Part shown: positions 30,060 through 41,375 of the stretch, piece by piece
Layout: each line of letters begins with the position of its first letter
How positions within the stretch are numbered: the first letter of the stretch is position 1
DNA from: an uncultured Allomuricauda sp.
Lineage (GTDB): Bacteria; Bacteroidota; Bacteroidia; Flavobacteriales; Flavobacteriaceae
Length of the DNA: 64,000 bases
Direction: 5' to 3'
NCBI GenBank assembly: GCA_965117065.1
Contig: OZ220751.1
Span: 1,789,807 to 1,853,806, forward strand
Program-made: the position numbers and the translations under genes
The notes under the pieces: model-generated
What the model was told of the DNA's origin: nothing
Database searches by the model: none
The model's input: only the letters and a program-made list of their open reading frames with translations

Positions 30060-31160
30060 TTATTCCTTAGTAATCAGCTTCCCTTTGTGCTTGGCCTCCT
30101 CATTACGATCAATGGTGTGGCTTGGTCTGGACCATTTTGGTTTTTCGCCTTGGGCTTCTAATTGGGAATCTGAAGCTTCAACCGTTTTTGGTTGTGATAT
30201 TTTGGTAAAGGGCTTTTGTGGATTCAATCCCAAGAGTTCGAACATTTCCATGTCCTCGTTCACATCCGGGTTTGGAGTGGTCAATAATTTATCCCCTGCA
30301 AAAATAGAGTTGGCCCCTACAAAAAAGCACATAGCCTGTCCTTCCCTACTCATCTCGGTTCTCCCAGCGGACAGTCTTACTTGTGTCTCTGGCATAACAA
30401 TTCGTGTTGTGGCTACCATGCGCACCATATCCCAGATGGAAATGGGTTCAATATCTTCCATGGGAGTGCCTTCAACCGCCACCAACGCATTAATTGGGAC
30501 CGATTCCGGTTGTGGGTTCAAAGAGGCCAAAGCAACCAACATGCCCGCTCTATCCTCCAGCTTTTCGCCCATGCCAATAATTCCACCGCTACAAACAGTA
30601 ACGTTGCTTTTACGTACATTGTCTATGGTATCCAAACGATCCTGAAAGGCCCGGGTGGAGATTACATCTTTATAATAATCCTCTGAAGTATCCAGATTAT
30701 GGTTGTAAGCATATAAGCCCGCTTCTGCCAGTCGATTGGCTTGGTTTTCGGTAAGCATACCTAAAGTACAGCACACCTCCATATCCAATTTGTTGATGGT
30801 ACGTACCATTTCCAATACTTGATCAAACTCTGGGCCATCCTTCACATTTCTCCACGCCGCACCCATGCAGACACGAGAACTACCAGAAGCTTTGGCCCTA
30901 AGGGCCTGTGCTTTCACTTGCTGAACGGACATTAAATCATTCCCCTCAATATCCGTATGATATCTAGCAGCCTGTGGACAATAGCCACAATCCTCTGGAC
31001 AACCACCGGTTTTGATGGATAGCAAGGTGGAAACCTGTACCGTATTGGGGTCATGATGTTGCCTATGCACGGAAGCGGCGTCATATAACAATTCCATTAA
31101 AGGTTTGTTGTAGATTTCCAGAATCTCTTCCTTGGTCCAGTTGTGTCTTGGTGCAATCAT
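30060..31160 (-). CDS. bioB: Biotin synthase with ~45-aa hydrophilic C-terminal extension
   Basis: 366 aa with the radical-SAM CPEDCGYC motif and full BioB core. Confidence 0.95.
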   Translation of the reverse strand: MIAPRHNWTKEEILEIYNKPLMELLYDAASVHRQHHDPNTVQVSTLLSIKTGGCPEDCGYCPQAARYHTDIEGNDLMSVQQVKAQALRAKASGSSRVCMGAAWRNVKDGPEFDQVLEMVRTINKLDMEVCCTLGMLTENQANRLAEAGLYAYNHNLDTSEDYYKDVISTRAFQDRLDTIDNVRKSNVTVCSGGIIGMGEKLEDRAGMLVALASLNPQPESVPINALVAVEGTPMEDIEPISIWDMVRMVATTRIVMPETQVRLSAGRTEMSREGQAMCFFVGANSIFAGDKLLTTPNPDVNEDMEMFELLGLNPQKPFTKISQPKTVEASDSQLEAQGEKPKWSRPSHTIDRNEEAKHKGKLITKE

Positions 31161-31283: not shown

Positions 31284-32717
31284 TTATTCTGCTTTTTTAT
31301 CTGATTTCGGCTTACTATCTCCTGTTTTTTGTTCGGAACCATCAGACACATCCTTTCCTTTTAGATATTCTGGCAGTTGCATTCCTGCCATATTGAACAT
31401 CTCTTGTAATGGGGGTACGGATTTATACATTCCAGAGATAAAATTGGCCGTAGAATTTTTACCATCTTCAGATTTAGCTCCAGAATCCCAAACAGTGATC
31501 TTATCAATCTTAATGTTTTTGATGGCCTCGGCTTGCTTCTCTACTAATTCTGGCAGTTTGTCTGCAATCAATAATAACACCGCATCTTTGGGGTTATCTC
31601 CAGCAGCTTTTACAATCCGATCCAATCCTTCAGCTTGTTTGGTCAATACCTCAAAGATTCCTTTTGCCTCAGCTTCTGCCTTGAATAAAATTGCATCGGC
31701 CTCCCCTTTTGCTTTCCTACGAATCATTTCAGCCTCGGCTTCTGCATCAATCTCTACTTTTTTCTTATCTATTTCCGCTGGCACAACAATATCCGCCATT
31801 TGAGAACTTCTTTCCCGTTCCGCCCTTGCAATTTCAGCATCTTTCTCTGCGGCATAAGATTCCTCCAAAGCTTTTGCTGTTTGTACTTTTTCCGCTGCAA
31901 TTGCAGTTCGCTCAGCTTCAGCTTCACGCTGTCTTCGTAAGGAATCTGAGTTTGCCACATCAATCTTCGCAACATTTTCCCCTTCTACAGCTTTTGCATT
32001 GGCAGCGGCAACCTGTGTCCTCTCATCTTGGACCGCGTTCGCCTCTCCAATGGAACCATCTCTGTTTTTTTCAGCAACAGATTTACGCGCGGCATTAATG
32101 GCGTGCGCAGCAGCCTCCTTACCTAAAGCCTCTATATAACCTGACTCGTCTACAATATCCGTGATGTTTACGTTGATGAGTTTGAGACCCACTTTTTTCA
32201 ACTCGGATTCTACACTTTGGGAAATATTGGACAGAAATTTATCCCTGTCCGAATTGATTTCTTCAATATCCATGGAAGCAACAACCAGACGTAGCTGACC
32301 GAAAATAATTTCCTTGGCCAAATCCTGCACCTCCTGCATTCCCAAACCTAAAAGTCGTTCTGCAGCGTTTTGCATAATTCCAGGTTCGGTAGAAATACCA
32401 ATGGTAAATCTTGAAGGCACGTTCACCCGAATATTCTGCCTACTTAGTGCATTGGTTAAGTCTACCTCTATGGAAATAGGGGTCAAATCCAGAAACTCAT
32501 AGTCTTGGATTACCGGCCAAATAAAAGCCGCCCCGCCATGAATACATTTAGCAGAATTACCAGAACCAACTTTTCCATAAACCACCAGAATTCGGTCTGA
32601 AGGACATCTTTTGTATCTCCTAATAAAGGAAATGATAATGATAAAGGCAAAAAGAATGGCAAAGCCAATAGTTAAGAGCGAAGCTCCTCCGCCCAGTTGT
32701 AAGGGTATTAATAGCAT
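31284..32717 (-). CDS. Flotillin-family SPFH/band-7 protein (YqiK/FloT-like)
   Basis: 477 aa with an N-terminal TM, SPFH domain and a long Ala/Glu-rich coiled coil. Confidence 0.85.
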   Translation of the reverse strand: MLLIPLQLGGGASLLTIGFAILFAFIIIISFIRRYKRCPSDRILVVYGKVGSGNSAKCIHGGAAFIWPVIQDYEFLDLTPISIEVDLTNALSRQNIRVNVPSRFTIGISTEPGIMQNAAERLLGLGMQEVQDLAKEIIFGQLRLVVASMDIEEINSDRDKFLSNISQSVESELKKVGLKLINVNITDIVDESGYIEALGKEAAAHAINAARKSVAEKNRDGSIGEANAVQDERTQVAAANAKAVEGENVAKIDVANSDSLRRQREAEAERTAIAAEKVQTAKALEESYAAEKDAEIARAERERSSQMADIVVPAEIDKKKVEIDAEAEAEMIRRKAKGEADAILFKAEAEAKGIFEVLTKQAEGLDRIVKAAGDNPKDAVLLLIADKLPELVEKQAEAIKNIKIDKITVWDSGAKSEDGKNSTANFISGMYKSVPPLQEMFNMAGMQLPEYLKGKDVSDGSEQKTGDSKPKSDKKAE

Positions 32718-32721
32718 ATGG

Positions 32722-33300
32722 TTATTTATTTAGGAGTTTAACAATCAATATTCCGTTATCGGTAACTTCTTTTACTTGGATCACGTTACCTTGTTTAAGG
32801 TCCACATTCTCATCCGTCAAAGCCTCTAATTCGCGTAGGGTACCTTGCACCTTAATGCTCACTTTTCCAATACTAGATCTATTGGCTCCAATTGTGAGGT
32901 ATACCTCCCCAATCTGATCGAGGGCATTTTTAAGTTTTAAAGTACCACTGCTTTGCATTTTGCTTAGGTAGTAAAACAGAGATGCCATGAGCAACATCAT
33001 AAGTAATCCACAGACCACGGAGATAAGAATGGTCATACCATTGGATAGACCGTTTTCCATGCATGAAATACCTGACCACCCAAAAATTGTAAAAAAGCCC
33101 ATTAAATTCTTAAAGGAAAGAAATTGAAATCCTATTCCGCCATCTCCTTCAACGTCTGCATCTATATCTCCGCTTACATCTTCGATATCTCCCCCAACAA
33201 AGGTCAAAACCATCAAAACAACAAGCACAATCGAGCCTGCGATTGCCGTAATCCAATAAACTTTTTCAAACAGCGTAAGTGTGGTATACCATTCTTCCAT
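32722..33300 (-). CDS. NfeD/YqiJ-like membrane protein (flotillin partner)
   Basis: 192 aa with TM helices plus a C-terminal OB-fold-like region. It lies immediately upstream of and co-oriented with flotillin. Confidence 0.6.
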   Translation of the reverse strand: MEEWYTTLTLFEKVYWITAIAGSIVLVVLMVLTFVGGDIEDVSGDIDADVEGDGGIGFQFLSFKNLMGFFTIFGWSGISCMENGLSNGMTILISVVCGLLMMLLMASLFYYLSKMQSSGTLKLKNALDQIGEVYLTIGANRSSIGKVSIKVQGTLRELEALTDENVDLKQGNVIQVKEVTDNGILIVKLLNK

Positions 33301-33366: not shown

Positions 33367-34524
33367 TTATTTGGAAAGTAAAATGGAAACTGCATTCCCG
33401 CCAAAACCTACTGCGTTGACCATAATCTTTTGAATGGGTTTGGCTCCCATATCTTGCCTTAAAAAAGGAGTAGTAATGTAGGTTTGATGCTGTAACATAA
33501 GCAAGGCCATTTCAACACTTAATAGTCCCGAGGCACCAAAGGTGTGGCCTACTTTCCATTTATTGGTTGTTAAAAAGGGTTTTTTGTTACAAAAGATTTT
33601 TTCAATAGCATTAAATTCCGACAAATCTCCCTTAACCGTACCTGGTGAGTGCAGAACAATAGCATCTACCTGCGAAGGGTCTAAATCGCCCAGAGCCATC
33701 TTCATAGAAGCTTGGAAGCACCGGGCATCAGTTGAAATGGAAACATTGTGTTCCAAAGGTTCGGTGGCATATCCAATTCCCACAATAAAAGCCAAAGCAT
33801 TTGCCTTTTCTCCTTTTTCCAAACATGCCATAGCGGCACCTTCCCCCAAGACCATTGAATTTTGCTTTTTGGTCAAGTCCAATGCTCGACAAGGAAATTC
33901 ATTGACTTCTTTTGCATATATTTTCAATGCATGCATCTGCGCAATGGTAAAAGGGGTTAAGGGTGCTTCGCTCCCTCCTACCAAGAATTTATCGGTTAAT
34001 CCGCTTTGAATCCAAGCCACCGCATTCAGCACCGCATGTAGGGCCGTGGAACAGGTGATTGAATGGGAAATTTCTGGTCCCTTCGATTTTAAATCATGGG
34101 CTACCCAGGAAGAGATATTGCCTAAAGTGGTTGTCGGTGAAGACAGGGTTGAAGATTTTCCTTCCTTTAGAAATTCCCCGTGATATTTTTCAAAAAGAGC
34201 CGTAGCTCCACGAGAAGACCCAATGTTGATTCCAAAATTGGCATCGCCCGTCCACTTTGCGCATTCAATAACCTTTCTGGCCGTACATAATGCGAAAAGC
34301 ACAGAATCATCCAAATGATGGTATTTTGAGTCTGATTGCCTTAACGTATTAACTTGCAACTTTGTTGATGCCGGAAGATTAGAAGCCCATACCTCTTGAT
34401 TCCCAATCTGGGTTTGGACTAAGTTATGCCCCTCCTTTTGATAGGATTCCCATACATCCTCAGGGGCACTCCCCAAGGCGGAAATAGACGATAAACTGGT
34501 AATGGAAACGGGTTCTTTCAGCAT
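33367..34524 (-). CDS. Beta-ketoacyl-ACP synthase I/II-like condensing enzyme, short form, embedded in the biotin operon
   Basis: 385 aa with active-site Cys in ITCSTALHA, and His in HSPGTVKGD and VGHTFGASG (Cys-His-His triad of FabB/FabF). The start is 11 nt after the bioA stop. A terminator hairpin follows. Confidence 0.7.
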   Translation of the reverse strand: MLKEPVSITSLSSISALGSAPEDVWESYQKEGHNLVQTQIGNQEVWASNLPASTKLQVNTLRQSDSKYHHLDDSVLFALCTARKVIECAKWTGDANFGINIGSSRGATALFEKYHGEFLKEGKSSTLSSPTTTLGNISSWVAHDLKSKGPEISHSITCSTALHAVLNAVAWIQSGLTDKFLVGGSEAPLTPFTIAQMHALKIYAKEVNEFPCRALDLTKKQNSMVLGEGAAMACLEKGEKANALAFIVGIGYATEPLEHNVSISTDARCFQASMKMALGDLDPSQVDAIVLHSPGTVKGDLSEFNAIEKIFCNKKPFLTTNKWKVGHTFGASGLLSVEMALLMLQHQTYITTPFLRQDMGAKPIQKIMVNAVGFGGNAVSILLSK

Positions 34525-34535
34525 TTCTATATCAT

Positions 34536-35822
34536 CTAAACAATTTCCAGTGCTGATTTTATAGCATTATAAATCTCCTTCATCTGCTCTTTGCTTGTAA
34601 TGAATGGAGCCAATATATAAATGGTATTCCCCAATGGCCTAAGAAAGATTCCTTGGTCCATAAAATGCCTAAAAAGTTTATCTCTTAGGTTTCCATAGCG
34701 CTCCATTTGCACCTTTAAATCCAAAGCATAAATAACGCCCAATTGTCTTGTTGCACCTACTCTAGGGTGGTTTTTAATTTCTGCATCAAATTCTTGGTGC
34801 CATTGTATAATGTTTTGTATGTTTTTTTGAATCCCTTCTGTTTGCAAGAGTTCCAAAGCTGCCAAAGCGGCGGTGCAGGCCAGTGGATTTGCTGTATACG
34901 TGTGTCCATGAAACAGACCTTTTGCGATATCATCACTATAAAAAGCTTGATAAACATTCTGAGTGCAGGAGGTAAGGCCCATCGGAACAAGTCCAGCTGT
35001 CAAGGCCTTGGAAAGACATATGATATCCGGTTTTGTTTCCATATGATCAGAAGCAAAATACTTTCCTGTCTTGCCAAATCCTGTCATCACCTCATCTGCT
35101 ATTGTTAGGACATGATGTTTTTTCAATAGCGACAGAATTTGATTAAGTCCATCCGCATCATGCATTTTCATCGCAGCGGCTCCTTGAACCAAAGGTTCAT
35201 ATATAAATCCGGCAACGTTTGCCTTTTGCAATCTAACTTCCAACTGATTCAACAGAATTGGCAAATTTTCCCGAGTTGGAACAGGAATACGTTCTACTTG
35301 AATAAAAAACTCCTCAAAGGGGCCATTGTAAACAGAAAGACCAGAAACAGACATCGCACCAAAAGTGTCTCCATGAAATCCCTCTTCAAAGGCCAATAGC
35401 ACGTTGCGCTTTTCCCCTCGGTTAAAATGGTATTGCAAAGCCATTTTAATCCCAATTTCCGTTGCTGTGGAACCATTATCTGAAAAGAATAGCTTCTCCT
35501 GATTCTCAGGTAAAACTTTGACTAGTTCCTCTGAGAGTTTTACGGCTGGCTCATGGGTAAACCCACTAAAAACTACCTGATCCAGTTGTTGCATCTGTTC
35601 CCCTACTTTTTCCAAAATGTAAGGATGGCAATGTCCATACACACAAGTATACCAAGAGGATATGCCGTCAATATATTCTTTGCCATTTTCATCAAACAGC
35701 ATAGCTCCTTTTGCCTTGGAAATGGCCAACATTTCAGGATGGGTCTTATGCTGGGTTAAGGGGTGCCAAAGGTGCTTTTTGTCCCTGTCCGATAAATTTT
35801 CCAATGTATGGGGATTAGCCAA
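34536..35822 (-). CDS. bioA: Adenosylmethionine-8-amino-7-oxononanoate aminotransferase
   Basis: 428 aa class-III aminotransferase with the characteristic BioA N-terminus (W.P.TQ...). Confidence 0.9.
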   Translation of the reverse strand: MANPHTLENLSDRDKKHLWHPLTQHKTHPEMLAISKAKGAMLFDENGKEYIDGISSWYTCVYGHCHPYILEKVGEQMQQLDQVVFSGFTHEPAVKLSEELVKVLPENQEKLFFSDNGSTATEIGIKMALQYHFNRGEKRNVLLAFEEGFHGDTFGAMSVSGLSVYNGPFEEFFIQVERIPVPTRENLPILLNQLEVRLQKANVAGFIYEPLVQGAAAMKMHDADGLNQILSLLKKHHVLTIADEVMTGFGKTGKYFASDHMETKPDIICLSKALTAGLVPMGLTSCTQNVYQAFYSDDIAKGLFHGHTYTANPLACTAALAALELLQTEGIQKNIQNIIQWHQEFDAEIKNHPRVGATRQLGVIYALDLKVQMERYGNLRDKLFRHFMDQGIFLRPLGNTIYILAPFITSKEQMKEIYNAIKSALEIV

Positions 35823-35896: not shown

Positions 35897-37381
35897 GTGC
35901 TTCTAAAAGCAAAAGGATTAGATTATTTTCGCAAGCTTCAGCTTCACTGGAAAACGGTATTTCTGGTTCTGCTTCTGCTAGCGCTCTTCATCCGATTCCC
36001 ATTTTTCTTTAGGGATTATGTGGATCGGGACGAAAGTACTTTTATCATCATGGCCCAATCCTGGGTTGATGGCCATTTGCCATATACTCAATTGTGGGAT
36101 CTAAAACCGCCTATTACCTTTTTCTGTTTTGCTGTGGTCATTTCCATTTTTGGTAAAAGTTTTATTGCCATCCGGTTGCTTGGGACTCTAATGGTTGCCC
36201 TTACTTCCCTTTTTACCTATGGAATTGCAATACGGACAACTTCCAAAAAAGTGGGGTTTTGGTGCGCCCTTTTTTGCGTTTTTTTTCAAAGTTTATTTGG
36301 CAGTCTGCAGGGGGTGATGTCTGAGCATATTTGCACCTTATTTTTTGTCATCGCAGTATATTTCCTGCTTTCTAAGCAAAATAGTTGGTGGCATTTAATT
36401 GCAGGCCTTCTCTTTGGACTCTCTGTAATGTCCAAGTTGAATATGGCCTATCCATTACTTTCCTTGGGAATTTATCTAATCTGGAGGGCGCTTAAGGACA
36501 ACGATTTATGGAAAGAACTTCAAAAATTAGTCGGCCTTGGGGCTGGGTTTGTTTTGATGCTAATACTGACAGCGATTCCCTACTACCTTCAAGGGGAATT
36601 AGGCAACTGGTGGCAATCCATTTTTGAAGCCCCATTGGCCTATTCTCAGTCCAAATTCCATTCTGTGGGTAAAGCACTGCCCGTTGTCTTGGGCACACTA
36701 CTCTTATTATCACTTGGAATTGCAACAAAGCTGATCAGCACAAAAACCAAGGAGGTGCAAATTTTACTAGTGGTTATAGTAGGAATACTCATTTCCTTTA
36801 TGCAAACAGGAAAGGTAAATGGACATTATTTGATTCAGTTGTATCCTTTTTTCCTAATTCTGGTAGCTATGGCCGTAAGCAAGTTGCCCTCCCCAAAAAG
36901 GGCATTTCAAATCGTCATGGGGATTTTGATAGCACTAATCCCAATGGAAGCCTATCTTGAATATGCCAACATCTTTTCCAATAAAATGGAAAAGGGCTCT
37001 TTTTATAACGGGGAAGGTATTGATGTCCCTAACTACATTAAAGAGAACAAGCTTGAGACTGACAATATTTTCTTTACTGAATATCATATTGGTTATTGGT
37101 TACTAAGCGAAACCCCTCCCACTAAGGCTGCTACCCACCCTAGCAATATTACGCGCGACCAACTTTTTCCCTATATGAACAATCCTAGAAGAACGGGAAT
37201 GGATGAGCTTCGTTTTATAATGGAGGTGGTGAAACCCAAGACTGTAGTGGCTAGAAATAAGAAAGCCATATTCGATAAAAAATTATTGGAGTTTAACTGG
37301 TATATAGATACCTATCTAGCTCAACATTATTTTTTAGAAGCCACAATAGATAGAGCCCTGATTTATCAACGTTTAGAATAA
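35897..37381 (+). CDS. Glycosyltransferase family 39/83-like integral membrane protein (ArnT/PMT-like)
   Basis: 494 aa with more than 10 TM helices and an N-terminal DxD/E-containing loop (FRDYVDRDEST) typical of GT-C mannosyl/arabinosyl transferases. GTG start. Confidence 0.6.
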   Translation: MLLKAKGLDYFRKLQLHWKTVFLVLLLLALFIRFPFFFRDYVDRDESTFIIMAQSWVDGHLPYTQLWDLKPPITFFCFAVVISIFGKSFIAIRLLGTLMVALTSLFTYGIAIRTTSKKVGFWCALFCVFFQSLFGSLQGVMSEHICTLFFVIAVYFLLSKQNSWWHLIAGLLFGLSVMSKLNMAYPLLSLGIYLIWRALKDNDLWKELQKLVGLGAGFVLMLILTAIPYYLQGELGNWWQSIFEAPLAYSQSKFHSVGKALPVVLGTLLLLSLGIATKLISTKTKEVQILLVVIVGILISFMQTGKVNGHYLIQLYPFFLILVAMAVSKLPSPKRAFQIVMGILIALIPMEAYLEYANIFSNKMEKGSFYNGEGIDVPNYIKENKLETDNIFFTEYHIGYWLLSETPPTKAATHPSNITRDQLFPYMNNPRRTGMDELRFIMEVVKPKTVVARNKKAIFDKKLLEFNWYIDTYLAQHYFLEATIDRALIYQRLE

Positions 37382-37987
37382 TTCCAAAGCTCCCCTAAAC
37401 TCTTCCGCGTACTTTTTTACCGTTACTTTATCAAAATTTTGCTCCTCATTGATTCTGCCAAGAAAAGAGACTTCTGTTTTCCTTAAAATGATACTTTCAG
37501 TGGTCGGATGTTCATTGCCACTAAATATAATTCCAACTTTTAGATTCTTTTCCTGAAGCTTTTCAATGGTAAGCAATGAATGGTTGATACTCCCCAAATA
37601 ATGCCTTGAAACCACAATAACCTTGTCGCTAGGTTTAATTAGGTCGAACACTGTATCCTTATCGTTTAAAGGAACAAGTAACCCTCCCGCTCCCTCAATG
37701 ATTAACTTGTTATCCGTTTTTGGAGGAACAATTTTATCCAACGCTATACTAATTCCGTCAATTTCCGCCGCGGCATGGGGGCTCATAGGTGTATTAAGGG
37801 CATAGCTGTTTTTGTGGATTTGGGTTCGTGGGTTGGAAATCAATGCTGCAATCGTATGACTATCGGAATGGGACAGGTCACCAGCTTGGACCGGTTTCCA
37901 ATAATCTGCTTCCAAGGCCTCAACTACAATAGCCGAAGCTATGGTTTTTCCTACGTCAGTGGATATTCCAGTAACAAATACATTCAT
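37373..37987 (-). CDS. bioD: Dethiobiotin synthetase
   Basis: 204 aa with the P-loop GISTDVGKT and the BioD fold. Confidence 0.9.
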   Translation of the reverse strand: MNVFVTGISTDVGKTIASAIVVEALEADYWKPVQAGDLSHSDSHTIAALISNPRTQIHKNSYALNTPMSPHAAAEIDGISIALDKIVPPKTDNKLIIEGAGGLLVPLNDKDTVFDLIKPSDKVIVVSRHYLGSINHSLLTIEKLQEKNLKVGIIFSGNEHPTTESIILRKTEVSFLGRINEEQNFDKVTVKKYAEEFRGALELF

Positions 37988-38370
37988 GATTGCGGTTTGG
38001 TAATAAAATTACAACGGGTACAACGGTATTTTTTTGGTTCAAAAAATGGAAACAATTTGTAAAAAACCCCCTTTCTGGAATAATATATTTCTGATCTGGT
38101 TGCCTTACAGTTGGGACAGACAATGGGGCTCCCATCCATGTCTGTAGCGTAGTTTCTAACCTCATCATAGATTTGCTTCGCCTTTTCCTTGTCCGTAGTG
38201 TATACCTGTAGTTTTACCCCGCCTATTGCACTACTAATAAGGGGGTCAGAATTAATGGTGTTCTCATCCCTTAAAAAAACTTGTATTCCTTCAGATTCAA
38301 GCTTTCCTTTTATGATTTGAACATCGGCCGGGAATTCAAAGCTACCCAATGTGTAAAATTCCTGTGTCAT
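37984..38370 (-). CDS. Hypothetical protein: DUF2007-like (PII-like) N-terminal domain plus C-terminal CxxC...CxxC zinc ribbon, translationally coupled between bioF and bioD
   Basis: 128 aa. Its ATG overlaps the bioF stop (TAATG) and its stop overlaps the bioD start (ATGA). Cys motifs CPNC...CTRC. Confidence 0.5.
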   Translation of the reverse strand: MTQEFYTLGSFEFPADVQIIKGKLESEGIQVFLRDENTINSDPLISSAIGGVKLQVYTTDKEKAKQIYDEVRNYATDMDGSPIVCPNCKATRSEIYYSRKGVFYKLFPFFEPKKYRCTRCNFITKPQS

Positions 38371-39521
38371 TACTTCATTCCATTCTTTATCAAGTGCAAA
38401 ACTCGGGAAAATTCTTCTTTGGTATTAAATGCATGTAAGCAAAACCTCAGTCTTTCTTCCCCTGTCTTAATTGTTGGCGAAAGAATTGGCTTTACATCAA
38501 ACCCTTCTTGGTACAATTCTTTGGAAAGCTTCTTTGCCTCTTGGTTGCCAGGAACCATCAAACAGTGTATGGCAGAATCGCTAGCCCTAAACCTCCTGTT
38601 CAGTCCTAAATGTTCAACTTCAGCTTTAAAATGTGAAATGTTTTGTTGAAGTGCCAATCTGTTATTCCTGCCGTGTTCCTGCAAATACTTATAAGCTACT
38701 ATGATCGTGGCAACTGCATGCGGGGCAAGTGCGGTAGTGTAAATAAAGCTTCTTGCAAAATTGATGAGGTATGACTTCAAGGGTTCGCTTCCTAAAATTG
38801 CTGCCCCATGACACCCCATAGCTTTCCCAAAAGTTAGGATTCTGGCAAAGACCTTGTCTTGTAGTCCCAATTCAAAAATTAAATCCTTGCCATCACCAAA
38901 AATTCCGGTGGCATGAGCTTCATCCACCACTAAATTATATCCTTTTTCACTGCAAGATTTCGCTAAGGCTTTTAAATCAGGGGAGTCCCCATCCATTGAG
39001 AAAACCGACTCCGTTACCACATACACCTCAGCGTCTTGGCCAATGTCTAAGCTACGCTCGATAAGACCTAGTAAGTCATTTATGTTATTGTGTTTGAATT
39101 TATAGCTCCTAGCATTCCCCATTTTAATCCCATCCCGAATACTGGCATGAATCAACTCGTCATAAAAAACCAAATCCCCTCTTTGGGGAACAGCGGAGAA
39201 AAATCCAACATTGGCATCGTAGCCAGAATTGAAAACAAGTGCCGCATCGGCTTTATGGTAATCAGCCAACAAAGATTCCAATTGAGGGTATAGTTCATGG
39301 TTTCCGGTTAGTAAACGAGACCCTGTTGCACCATTGAGGTAAATCTGCTTTTCCTTCAGAAGTTTCAACACTCCATCCTGAATGCTTTTTGTTCTCGAAA
39401 ATCCCAAATAGTCATTGGAAGAGAAATCAACCAAATTATTGGTGGTCGGGAAGTAGCGCATTGAATTATTGGCTGACCTTTCCGTCAATTTGGATTGCAG
39501 TTTTGGCGGTAATCTCTCCAT
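38370..39521 (-). CDS. bioF: 8-amino-7-oxononanoate synthase
   Basis: 383 aa alpha-oxoamine synthase with the PLP lysine in TFGKAMG. Confidence 0.9.
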   Translation of the reverse strand: MERLPPKLQSKLTERSANNSMRYFPTTNNLVDFSSNDYLGFSRTKSIQDGVLKLLKEKQIYLNGATGSRLLTGNHELYPQLESLLADYHKADAALVFNSGYDANVGFFSAVPQRGDLVFYDELIHASIRDGIKMGNARSYKFKHNNINDLLGLIERSLDIGQDAEVYVVTESVFSMDGDSPDLKALAKSCSEKGYNLVVDEAHATGIFGDGKDLIFELGLQDKVFARILTFGKAMGCHGAAILGSEPLKSYLINFARSFIYTTALAPHAVATIIVAYKYLQEHGRNNRLALQQNISHFKAEVEHLGLNRRFRASDSAIHCLMVPGNQEAKKLSKELYQEGFDVKPILSPTIKTGEERLRFCLHAFNTKEEFSRVLHLIKNGMK

Positions 39522-39584
39522 TCCTCAAATTTAGTGTTTACTGTTCTTAAATGTTTAAATTAGTTGCATTCAAACATCAATCAA

Positions 39585-41375
39585 ATGAAGATAATTTTTT
39601 CCCCTTTTGCCCTGTTGCTTTGCTTTATAATGACTGGGCAGACCAATACCTATGAAATAGCCTTCAAAGATGCAGTTCACCATGAGGCTACAGTTTCCGC
39701 CACCTTTACCAATTTGAAGACCGATGTGGTTTCCTTACGGATGAGCAGAACATCTCCCGGGCGTTATGCCCTGCATGAATTTGCTAAAAACGTTTATGAC
39801 TTTAAAGCCATGGACAGCAAAGGAAATGAATTGAAGGTCTTTAGGCCAGATCCATATGTTTGGCAAGTCGCCGGACATGATGGCACTGTACGGATACGTT
39901 ACACCCTTTTTGCAAATCGGGGTGATGGTACCTATTCGCAAATAGATGAAACCCATGCCCATTTGAACATTCCCGCAACCTTTATGTATGTTCCAGCATT
40001 GGCAGACCGCAATATTGAAGTGACTTTTAAGGTAAGGCAAGATCTTGGATGGAAAGTGGCTACTCAGTTACCATTGGTATCCGGCACAACCTATTCAGCT
40101 CCAAATCTGTATTATTTTATGGATAGTCCAACCGAGATCAGCAATTTTACGCTTAGGTCCTTTGAATTAGATGGGCAAACCATACAATTGGCATTGCACC
40201 ACAACGGAACCGAAGCGGAAGCAGATACATATTTTGAAAGAGTTAAAAAGACCGTATTGGCTGAAAAAGAGGTGTATGGGGAACTTCCCAAATTTGATTT
40301 TGACACTTATACTTTTTTAGCCTGTTATATCCCAAATGCATCCGGTGATGGAATGGAGCACAGAAATTCCACCATTCTGACCAGCACACGAAGTTTGGCA
40401 AATGGGGGAATGGAACGAAATATTGGCACTGTCTCACATGAATTCTTTCATGCTTGGAATGTAGAACGCATTAGACCCAAATCTTTAGAGCCTTTTAGTT
40501 TTGAAACTACCAACATGAGCGGTGAATTATGGTTTGCGGAAGGCTTTACCAGTTATTACACCAATTTGATCTTGTGCAGAGCTGGCTTAATTTCACCCAA
40601 AGATTATGTGGAGGGTCTATCTGGTACTTTCAACTACGTTTGGAATTCTCCAGCTCGGCAATTTTTTAATCCAATTGAAATGAGTTACCAGGCGCCTTTT
40701 GTAGATGCCGCCAGATCTGTAGACCCTGTAAATAGGGAAAATACATTTATTTCCTATTATTCCTACGGAAGTGTTTTGGGGCTGGCCTTGGACCTTTCTT
40801 TACGTCAGGAAAGGCTTAACCTAGATGATTTTATGAAAAAGGTGTGGCAGAAATATGGTAAAAAGGAAGTTCCTTACACTGTTAAGGATTTACATGAAGC
40901 ACTAAAAGAATATGCAGGAAACAAGTTTGGAGACACCTTCTTCCATACTTATATCTACCAAAGTGGAATGCCAGATTATAGTGCTCTCTTTGAATCTGTG
41001 GGAGTGAGTCTACAACAAAATGCAGACCAAGCTTATTTTGGTTCATTTGTTTCCATGGATGAAAACGGTGGAACCATTGCAAGAAATCCAGCTATTGGTA
41101 GCCCCGCACATGCATCCCATCTTGCCAAAGGGGATTTGATATTGGGCATCGATGAACTTCCATTTGTTGATGGACAGAATTTTGTTGAATATCTAGGGCA
41201 ATTTAGCATAGGAGATACATTGAATATTAATTATTCCAGATATGGCAAAGACCAGCGCACCACTCTGATTTTGAAGCCTAGCCCTTCCTATTCCATTAAT
41301 CTGCTGGAAGATGTTGACAAAGCACCTTCTGAGACGATGCTGGCTTTACGAAAATCCTGGCTCAAAATTGATTAA
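39585..41375 (+). CDS. M61-family glycyl aminopeptidase with C-terminal PDZ domain
   Basis: The HEFFHAWN (HExxH) zinc motif matches the M61 architecture. The ORF track starts at TTG 39564; the signal-peptide Met (MKIIFSPFALLLCF) is at 39585. Confidence 0.8.
   Translation: MKIIFSPFALLLCFIMTGQTNTYEIAFKDAVHHEATVSATFTNLKTDVVSLRMSRTSPGRYALHEFAKNVYDFKAMDSKGNELKVFRPDPYVWQVAGHDGTVRIRYTLFANRGDGTYSQIDETHAHLNIPATFMYVPALADRNIEVTFKVRQDLGWKVATQLPLVSGTTYSAPNLYYFMDSPTEISNFTLRSFELDGQTIQLALHHNGTEAEADTYFERVKKTVLAEKEVYGELPKFDFDTYTFLACYIPNASGDGMEHRNSTILTSTRSLANGGMERNIGTVSHEFFHAWNVERIRPKSLEPFSFETTNMSGELWFAEGFTSYYTNLILCRAGLISPKDYVEGLSGTFNYVWNSPARQFFNPIEMSYQAPFVDAARSVDPVNRENTFISYYSYGSVLGLALDLSLRQERLNLDDFMKKVWQKYGKKEVPYTVKDLHEALKEYAGNKFGDTFFHTYIYQSGMPDYSALFESVGVSLQQNADQAYFGSFVSMDENGGTIARNPAIGSPAHASHLAKGDLILGIDELPFVDGQNFVEYLGQFSIGDTLNINYSRYGKDQRTTLILKPSPSYSINLLEDVDKAPSETMLALRKSWLKID

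Follow-up and report, generated by a model that had tools for sequence, protein, structure and literature searches.

The small gene that lies between bioF and bioD in the biotin cluster of Flavobacteriaceae, here called X, is best read as encoding an autonomous small adaptor or regulator, with its gene locked into the biotin operon and its function independent of biotin synthesis, a reading to which we give a probability of about 0.58. X is probably not a dedicated partner of the biotin enzymes, because relatives that have deleted the whole pathway keep it intact. The original prediction had taken the tight coupling of X to both neighbours as the mark of a stoichiometric partner of BioF or BioD, and this claim was not supported by comparison with relatives, in which X is intact, with a dN/dS of 0.03, in 17 loci without bio genes and in 2 further loci where those genes are decaying. 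Membership in a pathway is not established by an operon position that is ancient and invariant, or by start and stop codons that overlap those of the neighbours. The small protein X is real and under strong constraint, and it belongs to a family widespread in Bacteroidota that is already known and annotated and is uncharacterised.

The X gene and its place in the biotin cluster

X is found in an extended biotin cluster of the window (the whole 64-kb stretch of DNA that was analysed), made up of the following genes.

30060..31160, minus strand: bioB (Radical_SAM + BATS)
31284..32717, minus strand: SPFH/Band_7 gene
32722..33300, minus strand: gene for a 192-aa membrane protein with no Pfam match
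33367..34524, minus strand: FabF/FabB-like beta-ketoacyl synthase (KAS), 385 aa, immediately downstream of bioA
34536..35822, minus strand: bioA
35897..37381, plus strand: PMT_2-family membrane glycosyltransferase, between bioD and bioA on the opposite strand
37373..37987, minus strand: bioD (dethiobiotin synthase), downstream of X
37984..38370, minus strand: X, a DUF2007 plus Cys4 zinc-ribbon coding sequence of 128 aa with an ATG start, coordinates including the stop codon
38370..39521, minus strand: bioF (8-amino-7-oxononanoate synthase-like), a 383-aa alpha-oxoamine synthase, upstream of X

The 128-aa open-reading frame between bioF and bioD, with the TAATG and ATGA junctions first described for it, is borne out by these coordinates. 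At the TAATG junction, one nucleotide is common to the bioF stop codon TAA (38370-38372) and the X start codon ATG (38368-38370), and at the ATGA junction the X stop codon TGA (37984-37986) and the bioD start codon ATG (37985-37987) lie in a 4-nt overlap of the two genes. The bioD product scored 107.9 bits against TIGR00347, exceeding the cutoff of 83.3, and the top NCBIfam match of the bioF product was TIGR00858 with an E-value of 3.7e-94, yet under the equivalog cutoff. Two plus-strand open-reading frames that overlap X (37775..38062 and 38281..38649) were dismissed as shadows, because purifying selection acts on the minus-strand frame. An Rfam scan of the whole window matched no RNA family, so no riboswitch accounts for the region.

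The arrangement was compared across 80 loci sampled from contigs representing one genome per species, onto which the genes of the window were mapped. About 12 kb was read per genome, and the status of a locus as bio+ or bio- (with or without the biotin genes) applies to that stretch. In 60 loci the order is GNAT, M61, bioF, X, bioD, (PMT), bioA, KAS, with bioB farther on and with genes outside the bio core, for example M61, missing from some of them. The bioF-X-bioD arrangement was present in every one of these bio+ loci (60/60), and X homologues of the long class described below occupy the same place in a bioF-X-bioD-bioA-...-KAS order on two Flavobacterium-like contigs and in Salinimicrobium, indicating that the order is old and invariant wherever the cluster exists. 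Conservation of the arrangement, proposed as a check on the original prediction, thus held in 63/63 biotin-cluster loci of Flavobacteriaceae, and X was always there in the bio operons of relatives. Unlike X, other insertions in the biotin cluster differ from genus to genus. At the bioF-X junction the genes overlap in 44/60 loci and the gap is never greater than 9 nt; at the X-bioD junction they overlap in 32/60, lie within 15 nt in 25/60 and are 88-172 nt apart in the other 3/60. The fixed place of X in the Flavobacteriaceae bio operon was not found in the literature searched, where searches combining DUF2007 with biotin gave nothing relevant and where, in agreement with the original prediction, no described biotin component had the architecture of X.

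A search of 5.8 billion proteins returned 946 homologues of X. The best 120 of these 946 have 74-91% identity, come from Flagellimonas/Allomuricauda, Maribacter, Muriicola, Eudoraea and related Flavobacteriaceae, and for the most part are annotated as 'DUF2007 domain-containing protein'. Among 1.84 billion cluster representatives, searched exhaustively, 2351 matched at E<=1e-3, 160 of them at E<=1e-10, and many of the matches are full-length proteins of 120-145 aa. In an alignment of 42 diverse homologues, G51, C85, C88, C117 and C120 are invariant. The open-reading frame is full-length in 80/80 related genome loci, and X tops its neighbourhood in conservation, with a median identity to the window copy of 76%, compared to 58% for BioF, 71% for BioD, 75% for BioA and 67% for the ketoacyl synthase. 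Pairwise dN/dS for X across the related loci was 0.03-0.05, with a value of 0.052 in bio+ loci and of 0.027 in bio- loci (median dN 0.031, dS 1.05); constraint on X is no weaker without the bio genes than with them, and the values are approximate, because a dS near 1 approaches saturation, and the contrast of X with its decayed neighbours does not hinge on them.

Other members of the cluster vary more in their placement. The 3′ end of the PMT_2 gene overlaps the 3′ end of bioD by 9 nt, and this gene, missing from a minority of bio+ loci, is kept in every bio- locus, as X is. In the window, the Band_7 gene and the gene for the 192-aa protein, which together resemble an NfeD-flotillin pair and may be one, separate bioB from bioA-KAS; in many relatives bioB directly follows KAS.

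Retention of X after loss of the biotin genes

In 17 Flagellimonas/Muricauda loci, bioF, bioD, bioA, the FabF-like KAS and bioB are gone or persist as scars and fragments, and in 2 loci from Maribacter MAGs the bio genes are in mid-decay. X and the adjacent PMT glycosyltransferase gene are intact in all 17 bio- loci and in both decaying ones. Alignment of the upstream regions of the bio- loci shows that the bioF promoter region and start codon were kept and that the bioF body was removed by differing deletions, the scars of which vary from a 5′ bioF remnant or a 3′ remnant to almost nothing. None of these deletions comes closer than about 35 nt to the X start, and since the body of bioF is deleted and its promoter kept, X now stands first behind what was the bioF promoter. 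In a tree of the PMT protein, bio- and bio+ loci intermingle. Within Flagellimonas, the losses may reflect a single inactivation followed by separate deletions, and the losses in Maribacter are independent of them. Among the best 120 matches to the window BioF, about 25 belong to named Flagellimonas/Muricauda/Allomuricauda species or strains and none to the named bio- species, which is consistent with real loss and is not proof of it. Past work found that ~31% of Flavobacteria genomes are without a complete late biotin pathway (PMC9561691), and a Winogradskyella MAG has been reported with an incomplete one (PMC9024300).

X is also present at sites that carry no bio genes at all, which again speaks against a partner role with BioF or BioD. 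No bio gene lies in the syntenic interval of Winogradskyella (M61...X...Cupin_8...RecX), where X is of the long class, or in that of Bizionia (atpDC...X...Band_7), which also has X. Six other contexts of homologues showed no bio neighbours, namely those in Pseudopedobacter, Roseivirga, Algoriphagus, a marine Flavobacteriales lineage that is abundant, another Bacteroidota contig and an Ignavibacteria MAG. Conversely, Weeksellaceae transcribe bioEFD and bioBA without an X-like gene (PMC12704756). By the measure of co-inheritance, X does not behave as a dedicated component of biotin synthesis, being present with the pathway yet kept after its loss, and this survival was not found in the literature searched.

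In Bizionia (L083) and Winogradskyella (L085), two DUF2975 genes and an HTH_26 gene flank X on one side, and on the other side is a convergent regulator of the MocR/GntR type, with an HTH and an aminotransferase-like domain, which is the protein class of BioL, the biotin repressor of Weeksellaceae.

Natural loss of the pathway serves as a cheap computational test, separating X, which is kept, from the FabF-like synthase, which is lost. The KAS gene follows bioA directly or one to two genes on in 52/60 bio+ loci, is absent from none of the loci that cover that stretch, and is found in the same cluster in Flavobacterium and Salinimicrobium. Its fate in bio- loci is that of the bio genes, deletion or fragmentation. 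KAS therefore behaves as a true pathway gene, always with the cluster and present only as fragments without it, and X does not. The KAS product scores far below NCBIfam cutoffs, and the cluster contains none of bioC, bioH, bioG, bioZ, bioW, bioI and bioE; KAS is a candidate for the pimeloyl-ACP step in Flavobacteriaceae. The KAS of Flavobacteriaceae bio clusters is not mentioned in the biotin literature searched, and this gene is perhaps a more promising biotin lead than X.

The region upstream of bioF, which comes to stand before X in the bio- loci, has the following features.

39522..39585: divergent intergenic region between bioF and M61
39526..39533, minus strand: candidate -7 promoter box of the Bacteroidetes type, TAAATTTG, 4 nt upstream of the bioF ATG

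In the upstream alignment, bio+ loci share the TAAATTTG box and bio- loci retain it ahead of X, and it presumably acts as a promoter. Its end lies 4 nt before the bioF ATG, suggesting that the bio mRNA may be leaderless or near-leaderless. X seems, in bio+ genomes, to be transcribed from the bio promoter and so to come under its regulation. A scan for sigma-70 promoters and terminators found fewer promoter-like sites than in shuffled sequence, the model being uninformative for Bacteroidota. The divergent M61 peptidase gene starts 42-54 nt away, and a conserved in-frame ATG at 39576 is a likelier start for it than the listed TTG at 39564. Between the putative -33 and -7 boxes there is a palindrome, CTGTTTAAAAACAG, which is clear in a few bio+ loci (L018, L020, L055), is weaker in the window (AACATTTAAGAACAGT) and is altered to CTGTTTAATCACCG in most bio- loci (L023, L024, L026, L032, L042, L056, L059). 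A bio operator that disappeared after the promoter had come to serve X alone is one possible reading of the palindrome.

Domain anatomy of X and the two spacer classes

The X protein consists of an N-terminal DUF2007 domain and a C-terminal zinc ribbon.

38158..38358, minus strand: DUF2007 alpha/beta domain, residues 5-71, beta-alpha-beta-alpha-alpha-beta-alpha
38002..38127, minus strand: C-terminal Cys4 zinc ribbon, residues 82-123, four invariant Cys and predicted strands
38107-38118, minus strand: zinc knuckle 1, C85/C88 (CPNC, residues 85-88)
38011-38022, minus strand: zinc knuckle 2, C117/C120 (CTRC, residues 117-120)

Pfam matched DUF2007 (PF09413) over residues 14-70 of X at an E-value of 5.2e-5, with 23.8 bits against a gathering score of 25.7. 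The same profile was found at E<=1e-3 in 37/42 aligned relatives, with a best value of 7e-12, and a precomputed PF09413 match is on record for homologues 80-91% identical to X. An AlphaFold2 model of X has a mean pLDDT of 83.7, places ribbon strands at residues 93-96 and 114-117, and has a fold like that of the solved DUF2007 member 2hfv. As expected of a Cys4 zinc ribbon, the two CxxC knuckles are conserved across the family and each lies at a predicted beta-hairpin, and the site presumably binds zinc. The two-half architecture originally proposed for X, a DUF2007 N-terminus and C-terminal CxxC pairs, stands; a sequence match to PII was absent (E ~0.9), and the fold has three strands. The spacer from CPNC to CTRC, given earlier as 16 residues, in fact counts 28 (89-116), including the aromatic segment VFYKLFPFF and a near-invariant P108. 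A Foldseek search of the PDB with X gave no match below E 0.01, the C-terminal part gave weak matches to the zinc ribbons of TFIIS, Rpb9 and NrdR at E>0.1, and neither a PDB sequence search with X nor a family-profile search gave anything significant. The fold matches of X are to generic small alpha/beta domains and assign no function.

The X family falls into two classes by the spacer between its CxxC knuckles, a long class of 38-39 residues and a short class of 28 to which X belongs. The long class has a hydrophobic stretch of ~18 residues, with a maximum 15-residue Kyte-Doolittle mean of 2.0-2.7; the same measure for the X spacer is 0.13-0.15, and a hydrophobic stretch of ~20 residues between the knuckles was not found in X, only in long-class relatives. 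Modelling of one long-class protein put a helix (residues 103-114) between the ribbon strands. Weak, sub-threshold matches to PF10601 (zf-LITAF-like) were obtained for 5/30 long-class members, the best at E 0.0038, and the PF10601 profile did not match X. In the LITAF domain, a hydrophobic helix interrupts a zinc ribbon, and zinc stabilises the resulting monotopic membrane anchor (PMC5095921). By analogy, the long class plausibly works like the LITAF anchor and would be membrane-associated.

Among proteins P0001-P0388, the short class was confined to the Flagellimonas/Maribacter/Muriicola/Zobellia group and a few others, and the long hydrophobic class is found in Flavobacterium, Salinimicrobium, Winogradskyella, Sphingobacteriia, Cytophagia and Ignavibacteria. 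Comparison of the two spacers implies that the short class arose by a single 10-residue deletion, one that probably altered membrane association. Since the 10 residues deleted in the Flagellimonas/Maribacter/Zobellia clade belong to the helix, X in that clade, the window copy included, is probably soluble or peripherally membrane-bound. This two-class, LITAF-like anatomy was not found in the literature searched; with it the DUF2007-plus-zinc-ribbon family of Bacteroidota gains a defined anatomy, and tractable model organisms exist for it.

Candidate roles of X and comparison with known systems

We infer that X is an adaptor or regulator. In Flavobacteriaceae it would be read from the bioF promoter, between bioF and bioD and translationally coupled to both. 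Its DUF2007 module, a predicted small three-stranded alpha/beta fold of the PII, ACT and ring-building-motif kind, would most likely provide a partner- or ligand-binding or oligomerising surface, and the zinc ribbon would hold a loop that in most relatives is predicted to be an ~18-residue hydrophobic helix, LITAF-like in form. The 0-9 nt between the genes leave no room for a rearrangement breakpoint that spares X, and given the strong selection on X, the gene order would therefore last for as long as the flanking genes are needed. With loss of the pathway, the surrounding bio genes would decay and X would be preserved, still attached to the former bioF promoter. Against an autonomous X, a 63/63 gene order with overlapping codons, maintained throughout the diversification of Flavobacteriaceae, is the usual signature of a functional link, and the bio promoter and regulation that X appears to share in bio+ genomes weigh in the same direction.

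Such points would fit a protein that serves biotin status, with X as a PII-like regulator, made from the biotin-responsive promoter, acting on a process that auxotrophs would still require: biotin uptake, biotin protein ligase or the biotin carboxyl carrier protein (BCCP) of acetyl-CoA carboxylase, with the binding of PII to BCCP as the analogy. A role of this kind would account for both the ancient operon position, with its coupled junctions in all 63 bio+ loci, and the persistence of X where the synthesis genes have gone; bio- loci also retain the former bioF promoter before X, and a long class that seems tethered to the membrane would be apt for the control of a transporter. We consider this role unlikely, though worth keeping in sight, as bioY, birA and accB are found in none of the 8 non-bio contexts examined, X has no sequence match to PII or SbtB (E ~0.9), its three strands differ from the canonical PII beta-alpha-beta-beta-alpha-beta, and the operator-like palindrome is degenerate in most bio- loci, which points to release from biotin control. 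The fuller proposal, that X is an unrecognised biotin-status factor of Flavobacteriaceae in which a DUF2007 sensor or adaptor tunes a biotin-consuming or biotin-importing step, is a shade more doubtful; if true, it would be a new regulatory layer in the biotin metabolism of a major marine group of biotin producers.

Very improbable is a dedicated stoichiometric accessory of the BioF/BioD step, whether carrier, chaperone or metal-dependent factor. Such a protein would explain why the start and stop codons of X overlap both enzyme genes and why the gene order is conserved, and would not explain an X that is intact, at a dN/dS of 0.03, where bioF, bioD, bioA, KAS and bioB have all disappeared, the presence of X without bio genes in syntenic regions of Winogradskyella and Bizionia, or homologues elsewhere that never adjoin bio genes in the contexts examined. 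E. coli BioF and BioD are not known to need an X-like protein. The BioF and BioD of Weeksellaceae work without such a protein (PMC12704756), and the same paper cites, as a precedent for an accessory, BsaP, a small auxiliary protein for mycobacterial BioB. An auxiliary or electron-donor role of X for BioB was rejected, bioB also being lost where X stays. The more general idea that the cysteines bind iron in a rubredoxin-like manner, making X a small electron carrier, for instance for the radical-SAM enzyme BioB, draws on a weak match to the rubredoxin-like domain of rubrerythrin (RUBY_RBDX, E 0.0055, 16.6 bits versus 26.5), on one source that labels a homologue 'rubredoxin' and on the presence of bioB in the same extended cluster. 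It is the least credible role of all, since X is kept while bioB is lost from every bio- locus, the knuckles CPNCKA and CTRCNF are without the CxxCG/CPxCG glycine pattern, and a spacer of 28-39 residues, hydrophobic in most relatives, is unlike rubredoxin.

The autonomous adaptor or regulator that we favour can be set beside several known systems. Like mycobacterial BsaP, the BioB partner, as far as it is described in the citing paper, X is a small Cys-containing open-reading frame embedded in a bio cluster; unlike BsaP as described there, it lies between bioF and bioD and not beside bioB, and it persists without bioB. PII/GlnB-like and ACT small sensors such as SbtB and CutA are another comparison, and from the PII/GlnB-like proteins X is set apart by having neither a sequence or profile match nor the PII fold with its T-loop. 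LITAF/SIMPLE-like proteins (PF10601) share with the long-class relatives of X the series of CxxC, hydrophobic stretch and CxxC, whereas LITAF itself is eukaryotic and endosomal, has a proline-rich N-terminus in place of DUF2007 and has HxCxxC as its second knuckle, and X differs from it further in that 10 residues of the hydrophobic stretch are gone. There is also DUF2007 itself (PF09413, described as a 'putative prokaryotic signal transducing protein', with 2hfv as its solved member), a family without established function, the definition of which X extends by a Cys4 zinc ribbon and, within Flavobacteriaceae, by its constant place in the biotin operon.
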